A stretch of 64,000 bases of DNA from Escherichia coli O127:H6 str. E2348/69 (GTDB lineage Bacteria > Pseudomonadota > Gammaproteobacteria > Enterobacterales > Enterobacteriaceae): the NCBI RefSeq assembly GCF_000026545.1, contig NC_011601.1; one strand, 5' to 3'. The position numbers and the translations under genes were made by a program. The notes under the pieces were generated by a model. The model saw only the letters and a program-made list of their open reading frames with translations, did no database searches and was not told the origin of the DNA. Of the stretch, positions 15,247 through 64,000 are shown piece by piece (positions within the stretch are counted from its first letter, which is position 1; the number at the start of each line of letters is the position of its first letter).

Positions 15247-16140
15247 ATGAACATAGTGATCACCGGAGGGACGGGATTAATTGGTCGCCATTTGATTCCA
15301 CGTTTGCTGGACCTGGGCCATCAAATCACGGTAGTGACGCGTAACCCGCAGAAAGCCAGTTCCGTTCTCGGCCCTCGGGTGACACTATGGCAAGGGCTTG
15401 CCGAACAAAGCAACCTCAACGGCGTTGATGCGGTAATCAACCTGGCCGGTGAACCGATTGCTGATAAACGCTGGACTCACGAGCAAAAAGAGCGTCTCTG
15501 CCAAAGCCGCTGGAATATCACGCAAAAACTGGTCGATTTGATTAATGCCAGCGACACGCCACCGTCGGTACTCATTTCCGGCTCGGCAACGGGCTATTAT
15601 GGCGACTTAGGTGAAGTGGTGGTTACCGAAGAGGAACCGCCGCATAACGAATTTACCCATAAACTCTGCGCCCGCTGGGAAGAGATTGCCTGTCGGGCGC
15701 AAAGTGACAAAACGCGAGTGTGCCTGCTGCGTACCGGCGTAGTGCTGGCACCAGACGGTGGTATCCTCGGTAAAATGCTGCCGCCATTTCGTTTTGGCCT
15801 GGGCGGGCCGATTGGCTCTGGTCGGCAGTATCTGGCCTGGATTCATATTGATGATATGGTCAACGGTATTCTCTGGCTGCTGGATAAAGAGCTGCGCGGG
15901 CCATTTAATATGGTTTCGCCCTACCCGGTGCGCAATGAACAATTTGCCCATGCACTGGGTCATGCGCTGCATCGCCCGGCCATTTTGCGCGTCCCTGCGA
16001 CCGCCATTCGGTTGTTAATGGGCGAATCTTCAGTTCTGGTATTAGGCGGTCAACGCGCGCTGCCAAAAAAGCTGGAAGAAGCGGGTTTTGCGTTTCGCTG
16101 GTACGATTTAGAAGAGGCGCTGGCGGATGTCGTTCGCTGA
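15247..16140 (+). CDS. yfcH: Epimerase family protein (SDR fold, DUF1731)
   Basis: Rossmann motif [13 protein letters not shown]; start set at this Met (ORF track begins 12 nt upstream). Confidence 0.88.
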
Positions 16141-16187
16141 TGTGGTTTACTGCAAACATCCGCCAGTTAACTCCCGGTGTTACAGGG

Positions 16188-17090
16188 TTAGTGGCTTTGC
16201 GCGATAAGATCGTCTGGTGAAAGTCGGGTCACCATCAGAACTAACTCTCGGTCTAAACCTCTCTCCAGCATCTCCTGAGCAATACGCAGGGCTTCTTCGC
16301 GTTTGCCCAGAATTAATCCATCATTCCGCCCTTCTTCACGTAATCTGTCAGCAATAGTCATCAGTTTCTCCTTTTCTTGTGGTGCGCGTTCCGCTATCTC
16401 ACCAATAAATGCACGGAAACGCTGGGCATCCCCCGTTTGTAATACGTAATTAAACAGGGCTTTTAGCTGTCTGTCATTAGTGTTCCCTGTAACTAGCAGC
16501 GAAACAATTTGGTCGACTAATCCCAACAGATCGCGCTGACGAATATGTTTCTGAATTAACTCCAACAGAGCCATTTTGCGATGTTGCATAATCTCGTCAT
16601 CCGGCACCACGGTAATATCCACCAGCGGAAAAGCCGATGAATATATTTTGCGGGCTATAGCAGGCTCGGCAAATTCATCAAGCCAGCAGAGTGAATAAGG
16701 ATAAGGACTTCTGCAACCATGATAAAACAGCATCGGGATCACCAATGGAAGCTCTTTATAGCCTGCATCAAGATGGTTTTGCATCGCCGCAATGGAATAG
16801 CGCATCATGCGAAAAGCCATTAATTCTTCCGGCTTACTTTGGTGCTCTATCACTACATAAATATAACCCGCTCCCTCCTGCGTTTTCACAGACCACAAGA
16901 GGTCGGAATAATATTGCCGCAGGTCTTCATCAATAAAACTGTTTGGTTCCAGTTTAAGCGTTGTTAAATCACACAGTTTGCGCAGCGGCGCGGGAAGATG
17001 AATATCAATAAAATCCCGCGCGGTGTCTGGATGGCGTAAAAAAGATTTAAATACCGCATCATGCGGCGTGGAAGTTGTCGATATTGTCAT
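16188..17090 (-). CDS. rpnB: Recombination-promoting nuclease, transposase-like PD-(D/E)XK family
   Basis: 300-aa [21 protein letters not shown]..., Rpn/YhgA-like family. Confidence 0.85.
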
Positions 17091-17285
17091 GGCGTTCCGT
17101 CACCCCTCAAATTTAAGATGACGCGACAATAACCACGATTTACACCCAATGCAGCAGGCAGTTTTTATCTTTGGACAGCGAATTCAGAACTATTTTTAGC
17201 GGACTGCAACTTTTACATTTCAGCGGAAGCGGACTCGCAAATTCCCCATGAAATACTCCGGCAGCGTTAGCCACCGGAGAGGAAA

Positions 17286-18059
17286 TTATTTCAGCGATCC
17301 CTTAAGGAACTGTTGCAGACGAGGGCTTTGCGGGTTACCAAATAACTGTTCTGGCGCGCCCTCTTCTTCTATTTTCCCCTGATGGAGGAAAATGACGTGA
17401 GTAGAAACATGGCGAGCAAAGCCCATTTCGTGAGTCACTACCACCATGGTTTTCCCCTCTTCTGCCAATTGCTGCATAATACGTAACACTTCGCCTACCA
17501 GTTCAGGATCGAGCGCCGAGGTAGGTTCATCAAATAGTAAAACTTCCGGTTCCATTGCCAGCGCCCTTGCGATGGAAACACGCTGTTGCTGACCGCCGGA
17601 AAGATGCACCGGATATTTCCCCTGCGCACGTTCGTCTATCCCGACTTTCGCCAGATACTTCACCGCCCGCTCGCGCGCTTCCTGCTTGCTCAGGCCCAAC
17701 ACCTGAATCGGCGCTTCCATGACGTTTTCCAGCACCGTCATATGGCTCCAGAGATTGAAGTGCTGGAATACCATAGTCAGGCGTGTGCGCAGTAAGCGCA
17801 GCTGATTTTTATCGGCGACTTTGAGTTGACCATCTTTGTCGCGCACCAGATTGATCGTCTGGCCATTGACCACGATCGATCCTTCGCTCGGTTTTTCGAG
17901 GAAGTTAATGCAGCGCAGAAAGGTACTTTTCCCCGATCCCGACGATCCGATGATGCTAATTACATCTCCGGCATTCGCTTGCAGTGAAACCCCTTTCAGC
18001 ACTTCGTGTTCGCCGTAGCGTTTGTGCAAATCGATAACGTTTAATTTATTCTCGGACAT
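17286..18059 (-). CDS. hisP: Histidine/lysine/arginine/ornithine ABC transporter ATP-binding protein
   Basis: 257-aa ORF with Walker A (GSSGSGKST) and ABC signature (LSGGQQQR). Confidence 0.96.
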
Positions 18060-24477: not shown

Positions 24478-24640
24478 TGTCGGATGCGGCGCGGGGCTGC
24501 TCCAGCGTAGGCCTGATAAGACACGCCAGTGTCGCATCAGGCAACGACTGTCGGATGCGGTGTAAACGCCTTATCCGACCTACGGGGCTACCCCTGCACA
24601 GGCCTGATAAGATGCGCCAGCGTCGCATCAGGCAAGACCG
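24478..24640. repeat. Cluster of REP elements (BIME)
   Basis: Several copies of gcctgataagacgc / gtcgcatcaggc / cggatgcggcgtaaacgccttatccgacctac motifs in alternating orientation. Confidence 0.8.
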
Positions 24641-58441: not shown

Positions 58442-58516
58442 GTCCTCTTAGTTAAATGGATATAACGAGCCCCTCCTAAGGGCTAATTGCAGGTTCGATT
58501 CCTGCAGGGGACACCA
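58442..58516 (+). tRNA. argW: tRNA-Arg (anticodon CCU)
   Basis: gtcctcttagttaaatggatataacgagcccctCCTaagggctaattgcaggttcgattcctgcaggggacacca: cloverleaf with CCU anticodon loop, T-arm GGTTCGATTCC, no encoded CCA. Confidence 0.9.
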
Positions 58517-58677
58517 TTTATCAGTTCGCTCCCATCCGTACCAGTCCGCAAAATCCCCTGAATATCAAGCCTTACGTATATTCACGGTTCGTCATGGTTC
58601 GCGTCAGATCGTTGACAGCCGCACTCCATGACGGGTAAAAAGTGGATAAAATAATTTTACCCACCGGATTTTTACCC

Positions 58678-59835
58678 ATGCTCACCGTTAAGCAGATTGA
58701 AGCAGCAAAGCCGAAAGAAAAACCATACCGCCTACTCGATGGTAATGGCCTGTACCTTTATGTCCCTGTATCAGGGAAAAAGGTATGGCAGCTTCGCTAC
58801 AAGATTGACGGTAAGGAGAAAATCCTGACTGTCGGAAAATATCCGCTTATGACTTTGCAGGAAGCAAGGGATAAGGCATGGACTGCGAGGAAAGACATCT
58901 CGGTTGGCATCGATCCGGTAAAGGCGAAAAAGGCTTCGTCTAACAACAATTCATTTAGTGCGATTTACAAGGAATGGTACGAGCACAAGAAGCAAGTCTG
59001 GTCAGTAGGCTATGCAACTGAACTTGCCAAAATGTTTGATGACGACATTTTACCCATCATCGGCGGTCTTGAGATTCAGGATATTGAGCCGATGCAACTG
59101 CTGGAAGTAATCCGCAGATTTGAAGATCGCGGTGCAATGGAGCGAGCCAACAAAGCCCGCAGAAGATGCGGCGAGGTTTTTCGTTACGCTATTGTCACCG
59201 GAAGGGCTAAATATAACCCGGCACCTGACCTTGCAGACGCCATGAAAGGATACCGCAAGAAGAACTTCCCGTTCCTTCCAGCAGACCAGATGCCTGCATT
59301 CAACAAAGCACTGGCAACATTTTCAGGAAGTATCGTATCGCTCATTGCGACAAAAGTTTTACGTTATACAGCCCTAAGAACGAAAGAGCTTCGTTCCATG
59401 CTATGGAAGAACGTCGATTTTGAAAACAGGATTATCACCATCGACGCCAGTGTGATGAAGGGACGCAAAATTCATGTGGTCCCGATGTCAGACCAGGTGG
59501 TTGAACTTCTCACTACGCTAAGCTCAATCACCAAACCAGTCTCAGAGTTTGTTTTTGCCGGGCGCAACGATAAGAAGAAGCCAATCTGCGAGAACGCGGT
59601 ATTGCTTGTGATCAAACAAATCGGCTATGAAGGTCTGGAAAGCGGTCACGGATTCAGGCATGAATTCAGCACGATTATGAACGAGCACGAATGGCCTGCT
59701 GACGCTATTGAAGTGCAACTGGCACATGCCAACGGCGGATCTGTGCGTGGGATTTACAACCATGCTCAGTATCTCGATAAACGCAGAGAAATGATGCAGT
59801 GGTGGGCGGACTGGCTTGATGAAAAGGTAGGGTGA
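58678..59835 (+). mobile_element. intS: P4-family tyrosine integrase (phage integrase)
   Basis: N-terminal arm-binding domain and C-terminal catalytic domain (R...HGFRH...Y), directly downstream of tRNA-Arg; start set at MLTVKQIEAA (ORF track begins 36 nt upstream). Confidence 0.9.
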
Positions 59836-60065
59836 TCGACCTTAACAACTATCGAATAGCACAAAGACTTGCGGGCCAGTGCAAGGCGTTCTGTGTCTCA
59901 GTTTTGTCTAAGTGTTCTACTAAAACATAGTAAAATCGGTAACGGCTGGAAATCATTCAATACTCGCACTATCGAAAGTTCGCCAGCCAGCCGCAGCACG
60001 TTCTTGCATACGACGTGGCTGCGGCTTCCAACATTAGACAAATAACTCTTTAAATTGCTTTTAAA

Positions 60066-60281
60066 TTATTTCGTTTGAATGCCAGTAACAGGAAATCGTT
60101 TATATAGGGTTGATAGCCCAACGTTATAGATACGTGCAACATAACGCCGCGATTTCCCTGCCGCTATGAGCGCTCCCATCTGTTGCCACTGCTCGTCGCT
60201 AAACTTCGGTCTACGCCCACCAATCCGGCCTTTGGATCTGGCAATAGCCAAACCAGCTAAAGTTCCGGGATGACAGGCCAG
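60066..60281 (-). pseudogene. Remnant of a Gin/Pin/Hin-family serine DNA invertase: C-terminal HTH domain only
   Basis: ...GRIGGRRPKFSDEQWQQMGALIAAGKSRRYVARIYNVGLSTLYKRF matches the invertase C-terminus; frame opens only from 60281 and the ORF-track Met is a TTG; no catalytic N-terminal domain. Confidence 0.75.
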
Positions 60282-60625
60282 TTAACATGCTCAGGGTCGG
60301 TTGTTACATCAACAGCCTTAACCTGATTCTTATATAAAAGCCACGCCGAAAGTTTAGCTCTGTTGGCATCGCTGATTTCACCCAGCATCAGCTCTGTGCG
60401 CCAGTCGAGCATAATTGCATCAGCGGCGGACAGTAATCGCTGTCGCTCATTTTCAGCAGCCTGGATGAGTTGTTCATGAGTCGGTGGGGGATTAATAATT
60501 TCCATAGCCTCACTTCTGGTGATTGGCACAAGCCCTTCTTTGATAAAAGCATCCTGTGTGCCATACGCATCGTAGGCATATACGACGTTATTTTCATCTT
60601 TGTAATACTTCATCATTGTTATCAT
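60257..60625 (-). CDS. Phage tail-fibre assembly (chaperone) protein, short form
   Basis: 122-aa ORF with the conserved Tfa C-terminal motif (...[20 protein letters not shown]); directly downstream of the tail-fibre gene. Confidence 0.75.
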
Positions 60626-61668
60626 TTTTTATCCACCTCTGCCCAGGTAACATCTGACACAGTTCCTGAAAACTGCCGCACGACATAGGTCGCACCGGCA
60701 GGAACCATGAATGCGATAGTTGCTCTGTGCCCTGCAAGATTTGTTGTCTGATTGCCGCGAAAATTAGCCAAATTACCATCCATATTAACGTCGGCGCTCA
60801 GAAATGAACTACCGTCAGACATCACCGCATTGACGCTTACAAATATGGCGAAAGACTGGCTGTTGGTGTATACGACACCGAGATTTCTAGATTTCATTCC
60901 GCATTGACCAAACAACCCTTTCATATCTGAGTAGTTTTGTGATGCAGCAAGTGATGATGCGGCAACACCAGATTCTGTTGATGTTCTGGAATCAGATACG
61001 CGGATAATTCCCTTGTTTGTAGTGGTTGCATCATTAGTCTTGCCTTGCAGAGCTACAATATCCGCATAATTCATCGCTGCCGCTTTTGCTGTTGCAGCAA
61101 GCGTTTCAGATTCGGATACCCTTGATGATGTAAGTTGAACAATTCCTTTCTGTGTCGTAGTTGAATCCTGAGTTTTGTTTTGCAAAGATTTTATGTCCGT
61201 ATAGTTTTGCGCGACAGCATTAGCTGTGGCTGCAATATCCTCTGCACCCGATACCCGCGATGACGTTAACCGGACTAAACCCACCTGTGTTGTTGATGCG
61301 TTTTTAATACCAAGGTTTTCGAGAGCCGTTTGCACAGTGCCATCCGATTTGATATCGCCAAACGGATTCTTGCGGCTCAGGTATTCAACAGCAAACCCCG
61401 ATCCCAGCAATTCAACAAAACCGGGCAGATCACCATTATCAAGCACATCCCGTTGCGTTTTATCACTTACAAACTGGGCCAGAGCTGCAGCAATAAAGCT
61501 GGCCTGCCGAATAACCTTATTGACTTGCGCACTGGATGCTTTCCCTGCTGTAAATCCGGATATAAGCGCAGGCAACGCTTCCCATTCCTCCTGCGACATA
61601 ACATTGGCATTTCGATCAGTTGCAAACGCTTTAAAGTCATTTTTCGCCATCAGAGTAATACTCCCCAT
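60622..61668 (-). CDS. Phage side tail-fibre protein with three tandem fibre repeats
   Basis: 348-aa ORF; three ~43-aa repeats ([16 protein letters not shown]...[15 protein letters not shown]) characteristic of tail-fibre proteins. Confidence 0.85.
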
Positions 61669-62330
61669 GCCCCTACATCAAAACCACTGATGAATTCGTT
61701 ATCCATATCAAAACCAAAAAATTTAGAGCCTTCCGATGGAGTTTCCACCGAAGGTGTTTCAATGCCCCCCGCCCATACCCCGGCGGCTTTTACTGTTAGA
61801 TACCCCTGTTTAATTGCCGCAATTAACTCACGCGATACATCTGAAATATCAGTATCAGGAAAGACCCAGACCGATATCGTCATGTCCTGGTTATCGACTA
61901 TCTGCATTCGCAGCCCGGATCCTGCTGTTGCCGCGTCAAGAATTGCCGGAAGCGAATCATTCCGTCCGTCCCAGTTATTAATCGCAATCTTCGCTTTAAG
62001 AATGACACGATAAGTTTCATCGCTGAGATACATGTATCCTGAATCAGGATCGTATGGTCCCTGCCATACCCCCTGATCATATCCAAGCCCGTCGGTATCC
62101 CAGCTGAAATAGACACCTGAGATAGGCTGGCTGACAACACGGCTACGTCCGATCCACAATCCAAGAATGTCAAGTTGCACACCAACCGCAGAGTCAATAT
62201 CAAATGCAGTAATCAGCCCTCTGGTGGCAGCCGCAACATCAATAAGTGGCCGGGTCATCAGATCAACATGCGCAAGAAATTTAGGTTTGGTAGCGTGGTA
62301 GTTCGTGATTAGTTCGGTGTATTTGCTCAT
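61650..62330 (-). CDS. Phage tail/baseplate protein (Mu gp48 / DUF2313-like)
   Basis: 226-aa ORF between the baseplate J-like gene and the tail fibre, as in Mu-like tail modules. Confidence 0.7.
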
Positions 62331-63526
62331 GACTCCACCGTTATAACGATATTTTCCGGGGTACAGGACGTAGATTCGTTGTATCTGATATCAATGTTTG
62401 ATGACGACAAAGCCCCCGGGGATTTCCCAATCGTCAGTTCCTGAATATCGTAATAGCGTGCATTCCCGCCACTCACCACGCCAAGATTCGCCGGTGAGTA
62501 AATGCGACTTAAAAGGACCGAATCACCAATCATCAGACTATTGATATAGTCGGAAATAGCCTGCTGGATCTGCTGCCCTATCTGTGAGGTATAACCCGTA
62601 AAAACTTTTAATTTAATCCGGGCGTAAACAGGCACATCACTGGAACGCGAGAATTTGATTACATGGGGATTGCCGTATTTATCCGGAACCGTAACGGATG
62701 TTGTACCGTGAGTGGCTGTCCCCTGGCCTTTATTTCCTCTGATAGCCTGAGCAATATCCGTCACATCACCGCCATCCACAATTACAGCAACAGAGTGTGG
62801 CGGTAACCCGTTACCGTCCTCCGAACCAGTATCGTTTTCATAGAGTTTGTGGCGGGTTACACCGGTAACATTAGAAACAGCACCATCCAGTGCTTCAAAT
62901 GGGGTTATTGATGGCAACGCAACACTTTGCGACTGGCGGATACGTAACTCCGCATCAGTTTCTGCTGGAGTGCCTACAGTAGCTGCAGCAGGATTGGTTA
63001 CCGAAACCCAGCCACGGGTTGGCGTATTAATTTCAGTGATAGTTCCAGCCAGCGCCGCCACTGCACCACTGACAGAACATTTTGCGGTCACCATCACTGT
63101 ACCATCCACGCCGACCACCACTGAAGCAGGCAAACGCCATATCACATTATTACTGTCTTTCACGCTGCCATTAATGATGGTTGTTCCGGCAGTTCCTGTA
63201 AGAAGCAAATCAACCGTAGAATTCGTCGCGCCTTTACGTGAAATACCATTTATTTTCACGTTACTGGTCAGTGCAGCCCCATAGCCGGTTGCCGGTGAAA
63301 AACAGTTGTAGACAGTTATCGCCATATTATTGGCATCATGAATCGCCAGCGCCATCAGAGCCACCATCTGGCCGTCTTTGCTGTCCGGTTCGAGGTAGGC
63401 ATCACTGCCATAAATCTGCTGAAAATAGCTAATCAGGGTGCTGAGTATCGTCTGATAATCAGGCGCACTGATCCCCTCCGCGGTTACCTTTGCAGATAAA
63501 CCGAGAGAATCAAGGTTCAGAGCCAT
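62327..63526 (-). CDS. Baseplate J-like protein (Mu gp47-like)
   Basis: 399-aa ORF; size, position and overlapping stop/start junctions typical of baseplate wedge gene J. Confidence 0.7.
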   Translation of the reverse strand: MALNLDSLGLSAKVTAEGISAPDYQTILSTLISYFQQIYGSDAYLEPDSKDGQMVALMALAIHDANNMAITVYNCFSPATGYGAALTSNVKINGISRKGATNSTVDLLLTGTAGTTIINGSVKDSNNVIWRLPASVVVGVDGTVMVTAKCSVSGAVAALAGTITEINTPTRGWVSVTNPAAATVGTPAETDAELRIRQSQSVALPSITPFEALDGAVSNVTGVTRHKLYENDTGSEDGNGLPPHSVAVIVDGGDVTDIAQAIRGNKGQGTATHGTTSVTVPDKYGNPHVIKFSRSSDVPVYARIKLKVFTGYTSQIGQQIQQAISDYINSLMIGDSVLLSRIYSPANLGVVSGGNARYYDIQELTIGKSPGALSSSNIDIRYNESTSCTPENIVITVES

Positions 63527-63879
63527 TACGCCTCCGATGTAACAGTCGTTATTCCATAGAGAGTGTCGATTTCAGCGGAAAACATGACACGTCGGGTCGT
63601 GGTATCCACCGTCGTATTGAAAGAGAGGATTGATTTAACGCCCTGCGTTTCCAGAATGCGTTTTCTGATCGCTAGGTTGTAAGTTTCCGGTTTTTGCCTG
63701 CCCAGCACAGACTGGATCCACGGAGTCCCTTCGGTAGTGTCGAGAAACCATTGCCCATACCACAATTCGAATCGCGTTTTCACAGCCTGCGCCACGGCCT
63801 CAGGCGAGTTAATCAGCCAGGTGTCATCACCGCTGCCAAAGGTGTAATCGCCATCGGCGTCTTCACGTCTGTATCGCAT
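63526..63879 (-). CDS. Phage baseplate protein (Mu gp46 / GPW-like)
   Basis: 117-aa ORF immediately upstream of the J-like gene. Confidence 0.65.
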   Translation of the reverse strand: MRYRREDADGDYTFGSGDDTWLINSPEAVAQAVKTRFELWYGQWFLDTTEGTPWIQSVLGRQKPETYNLAIRKRILETQGVKSILSFNTTVDTTTRRVMFSAEIDTLYGITTVTSEA

Positions 63880-64000
63880 CAGTTTACCCCGTCGGTACTG
63901 CTTCCACCGCGCTGAACACCGCCATGAGTGTGCGTATCATCGATTGGCTTGCCGTTAGCCTTAACGCTACCCAAAAACTCAACAACACCAGTGATTTTTG
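63879..64000 (-). CDS. C-terminal end of a baseplate central spike-like protein (partial, runs off the window)
   Basis: Reverse-complement translation ...KITGVVEFLGSVKANGKPIDDTHTHGGVQRGGSSTDGVN*; its TGA overlaps the gp46-like ATG (ATGA junction). Confidence 0.5.
   Translation of the reverse strand, partial: KITGVVEFLGSVKANGKPIDDTHTHGGVQRGGSSTDGVN

Follow-up and report, generated by a model that had tools for sequence, protein, structure and literature searches.

The window analysed here is a 64-kb stretch of DNA whose region matches E. coli E2348/69 (NZ_CP059840.2) at 100% identity by megablast. The open reading frame (ORF) listing of the window places an ATG-to-stop frame of 300 codons on the minus strand at 16188-17090, and the same 903 nt carry the label rpnB (WP_000156124.1) in the RefSeq annotation of E2348/69. 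In protein alignment, the product is 97% identical to K-12 RpnB (YfcI, b2305), whose gene, formerly yfcI, likewise sits between yfcH and hisP, so that position and near-identity together place the ORF in the RpnB orthologue group. To its left lies yfcH (15247-16140, plus strand), which encodes an epimerase-family oxidoreductase (TIGR01777), and to its right hisP (17286-18059, minus strand; NF007908, 578 bits), beyond which hisM, hisQ, hisJ and argT follow in order. The solitary position between an epimerase gene and the histidine transporter operon, as described in the first-pass annotation, is thus confirmed, and the 64-kb window holds neither a second rpn copy nor a stand-alone RpnS gene. 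The ORF is rpnB, an already characterised E. coli gene, and the finding is real but ordinary. Consensus promoter scans at standard and lenient settings returned no convincing sigma-70 site upstream of the rpnB-L ATG. The gene and its upstream region are as follows.

16188..17090, minus strand: full-length rpnB coding sequence (RpnB-L, 300 amino acids plus stop; the toxic endonuclease form), from the ORF listing and RefSeq identity
17091..17285, minus strand: hisP-rpnB intergenic region, with a terminator-like hairpin of hisP at 17279-17256 (terminator scan) and, presumably, the rpnB-L promoter

Assignment of the ORF to the Rpn family, which had been proposed from the sequence alone, is borne out by the domain matches. 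Residues 8-209 match PF04754 end to end (E=2.2e-91; 305 bits against a Pfam cutoff of 21), and with the NCBIfam model TIGR01784, named 'Rpn family recombination-promoting nuclease/putative transposase', the score is 188 bits, the cutoff being 52. When RpnB is aligned with K-12 RpnA and 28 other homologues, D11, D63, E82, Q84, R94 and the PDDE motif all fall at RpnA numbering; among the 30 homologues, conservation is complete at E82 and R94 and at least 90% at D63 and Q84. Mutating the RpnA equivalents of the catalytic residues abolished activity (PMC5350276). The N-terminal core belongs to the PD-(D/E)XK restriction-endonuclease-like fold. The AlphaFold2 model of RpnB is mediocre overall (mean pLDDT 61.7), and a Foldseek search with it gave no significant nuclease match.

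16464..17069, minus strand: PF04754 (Transposase_31 / YhgA-like) domain, residues 8-209, with the PD-(D/E)XK nuclease core in the N-terminal ~125 residues
16839..16904, minus strand: catalytic residues D63 (16902-16904), E82 (16845-16847) and Q84 (16839-16841), at the same positions as in RpnA
17058-17060, 16809-16811 and 16593-16604, minus strand: further conserved residues D11, R94 and the PDDE motif (163-166), at RpnA-equivalent positions

Against the NCBIfam equivalog models NF007418 and NF007361, RpnB scores 466 and 464 bits, the 464 bits being its score against the RpnA equivalog. Both models have a cutoff of 583, and the failure of RpnB to reach either indicates that no RpnB-specific equivalog exists. 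One of the two is still named 'ISNCY family transposase', a name that perpetuates the transposase label in annotations. The description of this ORF as transposase-derived is not supported, as its only source is the name that Pfam gave the domain historically, the protein is a PD-(D/E)XK endonuclease, and the literature opposes it: rpn genes have been described as gene-within-gene toxin-antitoxin systems that are 'highly unlikely' to be transposases (Zhong 2023, PMC10400941), and there is no evidence for their autonomous transposition (PMC10400941).

The C-terminal part of the frame contains a second start. A Shine-Dalgarno hexamer stands six nucleotides ahead of an in-frame ATG at codon 244, and the hexamer, spacer and ATG (AAGGAG-N6-ATG) are identical in 8 of 8 readable rpn genes from five kinds of locus, while nearby synonymous sites vary. 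All five K-12 rpn genes contain an internal start, RpnB-S is produced from the K-12 chromosome, and the equivalent of K240R+E241D+M244L in rpnA abolished RpnA-S (PMC10400941). The published 'D29' stop mutant of RpnB-S corresponds to K-12 D272 in our alignment only if translation starts at M244 (PMC10400941), which indicates that RpnB-S begins at M244 and thus that in E2348/69 it spans 16188-16361 and has 57 residues.

16368..16373, minus strand: internal Shine-Dalgarno AAGGAG (codons K240-E241), 6 nt ahead of the internal ATG, read from the sequence
16188..16361, minus strand: rpnB-S, M244 to the shared stop, 57 amino acids, ATG at 16359-16361; predicted antitoxin (three-helix C-terminal domain)

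Residues 244-299 align to residues 1-48 of the RpnA-S chain in PDB 7TH0 (phmmer, E=0.089), and in Foldseek the C-terminal model of RpnB matches the same structure with a probability of 1.00, a TM(target) of 0.74 and 38% identity. Orthologues of RpnB are also listed with PF27070 (HTH_Rpn_C) by their source database. Consensus scans found no convincing sigma-70 site near the start of rpnB-S; the sole minus-strand match, at 16889-16860, is some 500 nt upstream of that start. In K-12, the internal short transcript has dRNA-seq evidence (PMC10400941). The E2348/69 allele appears to carry every sequence feature that the toxin-antitoxin mechanism needs, and this intragenic RpnB-S antitoxin, by which the gene forms a complete toxin-antitoxin module in itself, within a family that has been connected with phage defence, is the main known feature that the first-pass annotation missed.

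The mechanism that we propose follows the published one. Translation from the first ATG (17090) would yield RpnB-L, an Mg-dependent PD-(D/E)XK DNA endonuclease with little sequence specificity, and unchecked RpnB-L would cause DNA damage, SOS induction and cell death. The AAGGAG-N6-ATG at codon 244 would direct synthesis of RpnB-S (57 residues), identical in sequence to the C-terminal three-helix domain of RpnB-L, and a separate internal transcript has been reported to drive the S form (PMC10400941). RpnB-S would then bind RpnB-L via the common helical domain and block the nuclease as its cognate antitoxin. Which S matches which L would probably depend on how many four-residue GXXX units the first helix has. 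Overexpressed K-12 RpnB is toxic, kills recA cells, induces SOS and raises RecA-independent recombination 19-fold (Kingston 2017, PMC5350276). When its internal start is removed, toxicity rises, and RpnB-S, but not RpnA-S, blocks RpnB-dependent SOS induction (PMC10400941). K-12 RpnB shares with the E2348/69 protein its catalytic residues and the AAGGAG-N6-ATG at codon 244, and we infer that the E2348/69 allele behaves like it, with a three-unit RpnB-S specific for its own RpnB-L.

The biochemistry behind these steps was established for RpnA. Only for RpnA has it been reported that the endonuclease depends on Mg and cuts with little specificity, that an L2S2 complex forms and that the S form inhibits in vitro (PMC10400941, PMC5350276), and by homology we infer the same nuclease activity and L2S2 complex for E2348/69 RpnB. 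Comparison with this paralogue, which had been suggested as a check on the ORF, was carried out and bears out the relationship: E. coli RpnA (YhgA) is 66% identical to RpnB, has the same gene-within-gene layout and carries D63, E82, Q84 and M244 at identical numbers, and the predicted C-terminal domain of RpnB models onto the RpnA-S structure (PDB 7TH0). RpnA differs in its locus (feoC-bioH) and in its antitoxin, which has 49 residues and only one GXXX unit. In published assays, neither RpnA-S against RpnB-L nor RpnB-S against RpnA-L had a neutralising effect (PMC10400941).

The antitoxin is also where the E2348/69 allele departs from K-12. K-12 RpnB has 296 residues and an RpnB-S of 53, whereas E2348/69 RpnB has 300 and a predicted RpnB-S of 57. 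Both DNA and protein alignments assign this difference to the GXXX units, of which E2348/69 has three and K-12 two, the extra four-residue unit falling where the K-12 protein reads A----MQGKH or G-AMQ-G-KHE in the alignments. The units start at residue 11 of RpnB-S, and the published range is 8-20.

16296..16331, minus strand: variable GXXX units G254-RND, G258-LIL and G262-KRE, including a 12-nt insertion relative to K-12 that the alignment places at 16320-16331

Besides the extra unit, the RpnB-S part of E2348/69 has three more replacements relative to K-12 RpnB (E276D, L285M and one at the R264H position). The 243-codon nuclease part differs from K-12 by 11 nucleotides (9 synonymous, 2 non-synonymous) and two amino acids, while the 53/57-residue S part has the 4-residue indel and 7 nucleotide changes, about 6 of which are replacements. 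This concentration of mostly non-synonymous change in the S part suggests ongoing selection. Homologues occur at lengths of 296, 300, 304, 308, 312, 316 and 320 residues, in four-residue steps, with one to eight GXXX units. The 296- and 300-residue alleles both occur in E. coli; the 300-residue three-unit form is found in about 1,225 E. coli genomes and also in E. marmotae, and it is the less common antitoxin form that E2348/69 carries. Variation in this four-residue repeat has been published, and for RpnC it decides which S neutralises which L (PMC10400941). By analogy with the published RpnC experiment with and without the repeat, the 57-residue form and the 53-residue form of K-12 may not cross-neutralise.

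Loci with and without the gene were compared. The sample was 5,426 complete E. coli genomes, in 5,425 of which the flanks match. An rpnB coding sequence is present in 4,755 of the 5,426, always on the chromosome and at a median of one matched place per genome; 13 genomes have two matched places, for example an IS-split copy. In a further 670 genomes, which include ST131 and Nissle strains, an identical 27-nt scar is found, and rpnB and the scar together cover 5,425 of the 5,426. Because the two counts exhaust the flank-matched genomes, absence of the gene corresponds to one deletion allele. The variable segment was delimited from the genomes that lack rpnB, where shared sequence stops at 16166 and resumes at 17181, and in the Nissle-type and AR_0086 genomes these 1,014 nt are replaced by the 27 nt CGGAAACGCTGATGAATAAATATAGAT. 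The scar was mapped by separate alignments of the left and right junctions together with local alignment, as MAFFT alignment of whole filled and empty loci misaligned the left flank.

16167..17180, no strand: present/absent segment of 1,014 nt, comprising rpnB with 21 nt downstream and 90 nt upstream, from alignments with Nissle-type and AR_0086 loci
16614..16646, plus strand: rpnB-internal sequence kept in the 'empty' allele, consisting of the microhomology ATATCCACCAG (16614-16624) and then 21 nt (16626-16646)
16120..16166, plus strand: hairpin with an 11-bp perfect stem, CTGGCGGATGT ... ACATCCGCCAG, which spans the yfcH stop codon and whose right arm serves both as the left deletion junction and as the microhomology partner

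Of the 27 nt of the scar, 21 match the rpnB interior at 16626-16646 in the same orientation at 18 of 21 positions, a score that none of 2,000 shuffled fillers reached. Since the scar retains rpnB-internal sequence, it points to a single deletion and not to an empty insertion site. On the left, ATATCCACCAG (16614-16624) is nearly identical to ACATCCGCCAG (16156-16166), the sequence at the left junction, so that the left join lies at a microhomology of 9-11 nt; the right join has no clear microhomology, which calls for either a further event or a deletion of greater complexity. As for the yfcH-rpnB intergenic hairpin itself, its fold is no stabler than that of shuffled sequences (z=-0.22), and a terminator role considered for it was dropped. 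From these alignments, rpnB appears to have been lost once by deletion, in a lineage that now makes up 12% of sequenced genomes.

Other alleles are disrupted in different ways. In a few strains rpnB is split by an IS, as in E. coli strain 3985 (NZ_CP103623.1; L015:1266-3506), where an IS4-like ISVsa5 has produced an independent natural knockout at the same locus. Three Shigella flexneri variants of RpnB (P0025, P0026 and P0033) carry in-frame deletions of 12-24 residues in the nuclease/PF04754 part and keep RpnB-S and its start intact, a pattern that would be expected if the toxin had been inactivated and the antitoxin retained.

The specificity classes and the scar each invite a further suggestion, and we regard the pair as doubtful. 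The 296- and 300-residue classes may represent an old polymorphism of mutually non-neutralising toxin/antitoxin specificity classes within E. coli; separately, the 27-nt scar, present in 670 genomes and with its microhomology of 9-11 nt, could be a footprint of RecA-independent break repair of the type that RpnB provokes.

The ends of the 1,014-nt segment lack the marks of a transposable element. Its best end-to-end inverted match scores 9, where shuffled sequences average 8.3 and 345 of 1,000 do as well; no direct repeat or target-site duplication was found at the junctions 16166|16167 and 17180|17181, and a repeat search of the locus returned nothing at the segment ends. The absence of evident terminal inverted repeats noted at first inspection thus survives a direct check of the flanks, with the missing target-site duplication to be added to it. 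A published survey likewise reports rpn genes without any inverted terminal repeats or duplicated target sites that could be identified (PMC10400941). What would identify an insertion sequence, namely terminal repeats, a target duplication with a clean empty site, and multiple or mobile copies, is therefore missing at this locus. Like insertion sequences and ISNCY 'transposases', rpnB is a single-gene unit that is patchy across genomes; it differs from them in lacking terminal repeats, a target duplication and multiple copies, and in its fold, which is PD-(D/E)XK and not one recognised for transposases.

The comparison beyond E. coli indicates long residence. Genomes labelled as E. fergusonii and as E. 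marmotae have hisP, rpnB and yfcH in the same order. Relative to E. marmotae, the nuclease part has diverged by 9.6% at the nucleotide level (70 differences) with 9 of 243 residues changed, while the flanks have diverged by 7-13% overall (hisM and hisP 7.3-7.6%, yfcH 11.6%). Flank-like divergence with so few residues changed argues for vertical descent under strong purifying selection, and rpnB is, as far as these alignments reach, ancestral at yfcH-hisP, apparently inherited vertically since before the split of E. coli and E. marmotae. Outside Escherichia, the nearest homologues are 65-71% identical and lie at other loci: at feoC-bioH, the rpnA locus, in Salmonella; beside yjiR/yjiS, an rpnD-like place, in Citrobacter; and at phr-dtpD in an enterobacterium. 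Those of Salmonella and Citrobacter were considered as rpnB orthologues and rejected, since at rpnA and rpnD-like loci they are orthologues of the paralogues. With the nearest homologues outside the genus at other loci, rpnB at yfcH-hisP appears to be Escherichia-specific. Members of the Rpn family at large stand singly among housekeeping genes at many loci, and they are common on enterobacterial plasmids, with 4,683 PLSDB plasmid records, mostly at below 60% identity. High-identity matches among these records were not accepted as plasmid copies of rpnB, as they are multi-megabase chromosomes that have been mislabelled. Three such records, NZ_OL790696.1, NZ_CP134663.1 and NZ_CP141089.1 (H80-H82), are 4.8-4.9 Mb long, contain rpnB and four other rpn places, and are evidently chromosomes filed as plasmids.

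Two loci in this comparison have a more complex structure. In CP042945.1 (labelled E. fergusonii; L004), divergence from the window is about 4% in hisM and hisP, 1.9% in folX, 11.6% in yfcG and 11.7% in the rpnB-S part, which is a third C-terminal variant, EKGFDHEVILTL; this unevenness suggests a mosaic history of the region. The ENA metagenome contig k141_1869 (L009:751-1641) has the order feoC - rpn - yfcH - folX - yfcG, and its rpn product corresponds to K-12 RpnA over residues 1-100 and to RpnB over residues 101-296, so that the rpnA and rpnB loci are joined. Either the assembly is chimeric, with the join in the conserved nuclease region, or rpnA and rpnB have genuinely recombined. Similar RpnA/RpnB mosaics occur in two other metagenome proteins (set P0028, P0034, P0036).

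We consider it very likely that rpnB is an Rpn-family gene long resident on the chromosome, in which one frame encodes both a nuclease toxin and its antitoxin, and which is not self-mobile, has been inherited vertically and was lost once by deletion. The best surviving alternative, an improbable one, is that it is a domesticated transposase, derived from a mobile element and kept by the host for RecA-independent recombination and gene acquisition. The Pfam name Transposase_31 and the 'ISNCY family transposase' label on the closest NCBIfam equivalog would suit this origin, as would the scatter of the family over many loci and 4,683 plasmid records; the fold and catalytic residues, however, are those of PD-(D/E)XK enzymes, unlike known autonomous transposases (PMC10400941), and terminal repeats and target duplications are missing here as in the published survey (PMC10400941). 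The 19-fold increase in RecA-independent recombination is likewise in its favour but was seen on RpnB overexpression only, is more simply explained as a by-product of DNA breaks, and contrasts with the quadruple rpnA-D deletion, which left basal recombination unchanged (PMC5350276). Nor does a domesticated transposase give any role to the internal antitoxin and the hypervariable repeats. The earlier characterisation as a domesticated mobile-element gene thus holds for long residence under purifying selection, on the grounds of synteny and the 9 changes in 243 residues, while an origin from a mobile element is not supported; the capacity for promoting RecA-independent recombination applies to overexpression and does not extend to the basal level (PMC5350276).

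Less probable again is that rpnB is a functionless selfish remnant, a decaying addiction module kept since loss of the antitoxin is lethal. Dispensability in 12% of genomes, disruption by insertion sequences in some, the Shigella variants with in-frame nuclease deletions and an intact S part, and the fact that no phenotype has been reported for the chromosomal deletion (PMC5350276) could all be accommodated in this way. Decay is nevertheless hard to reconcile with the strong purifying selection against E. marmotae (70 nucleotide differences but only 9 amino acid changes in 243 codons), with catalytic residues that are all intact, or with the concentrated, mostly non-synonymous changes in the S part, which suggest ongoing selection. 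Moreover, because S lies inside L and one deletion removes both, addiction alone cannot prevent loss. Finally, there is the reading of rpnB as an insertion sequence that is still mobile, or was until recently, and that inserted between yfcH and hisP, to which a single gene amid unrelated housekeeping genes and its presence or absence among strains might seem to point. Sequence evidence, within its limits, already refutes this reading: the segment has neither terminal inverted repeats nor a target-site duplication, the gene occurs at a median of one place per genome, always at yfcH-hisP and never on E. coli plasmids, the 'empty' allele retains rpnB-internal sequence, which marks it as a deletion and not as a vacant target, and the same site is filled in two other Escherichia species with flank-like divergence.

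For the long-resident toxin-antitoxin gene that we favour, a biological role is suggested by the plasmid-borne RpnP2. RpnP2, from an ECOR13 plasmid, shares its family and its L/S architecture with RpnB, and protection against T-even phages has been demonstrated for it only (PMC10400941). By analogy, RpnB may have an anti-phage role of the abortive-infection type; however, the anti-phage activity is RpnP2's own, and RpnB is chromosomal, vertically inherited and surrounded by housekeeping genes. The neighbourhood (folX, yfcH and hisJQMP) consists of housekeeping genes and is not a defense island, and RpnB matched no defence-system model in PADLOC 2.0.0 (2023), a database that may predate Rpn. 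The housekeeping neighbours, the lack of a PADLOC match and the dispensability of the gene in 12% of genomes make phage defence the weakest of our proposals.

As a discovery, the locus carries little weight, since rpnB is a named and experimentally studied gene and the E2348/69 copy fits the published model feature for feature. The 'transposase' label, propagated via Pfam and NCBIfam names, is corrected to that of a nuclease toxin with an intragenic antitoxin. Our additions are minor: the one deletion allele, the ancestral residency in Escherichia and the three-unit antitoxin form in E2348/69.

Several further observations were made in the course of the analysis. In a PDB sequence search, RpnB residues 257-289 (16224-16322) scored against designer PPR chains at E about 1e-14, and homology to PPR proteins was rejected as an artefact: the score sums about 6 bits from each of ten identical repeats, and thus reflects the likeness of helical hairpins and not common descent. 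An Rfam search matched naRNA4 (RF02564), a REP-derived nucleoid-associated RNA element, at 24510-24580 on the minus strand with 74.6 bits, in an intergenic gap that coordinate conversion places between dedD and cvpA. Near the right end of the window, a tRNA-Arg (CCT) at 58442-58516 is followed by the integrase gene intS and then, up to the window end at 64000, by phage tail-fibre, baseplate, sheath-initiator and spike genes; the interval 58442-64000 is a prophage, or the remnant of one, integrated at argW in E2348/69.
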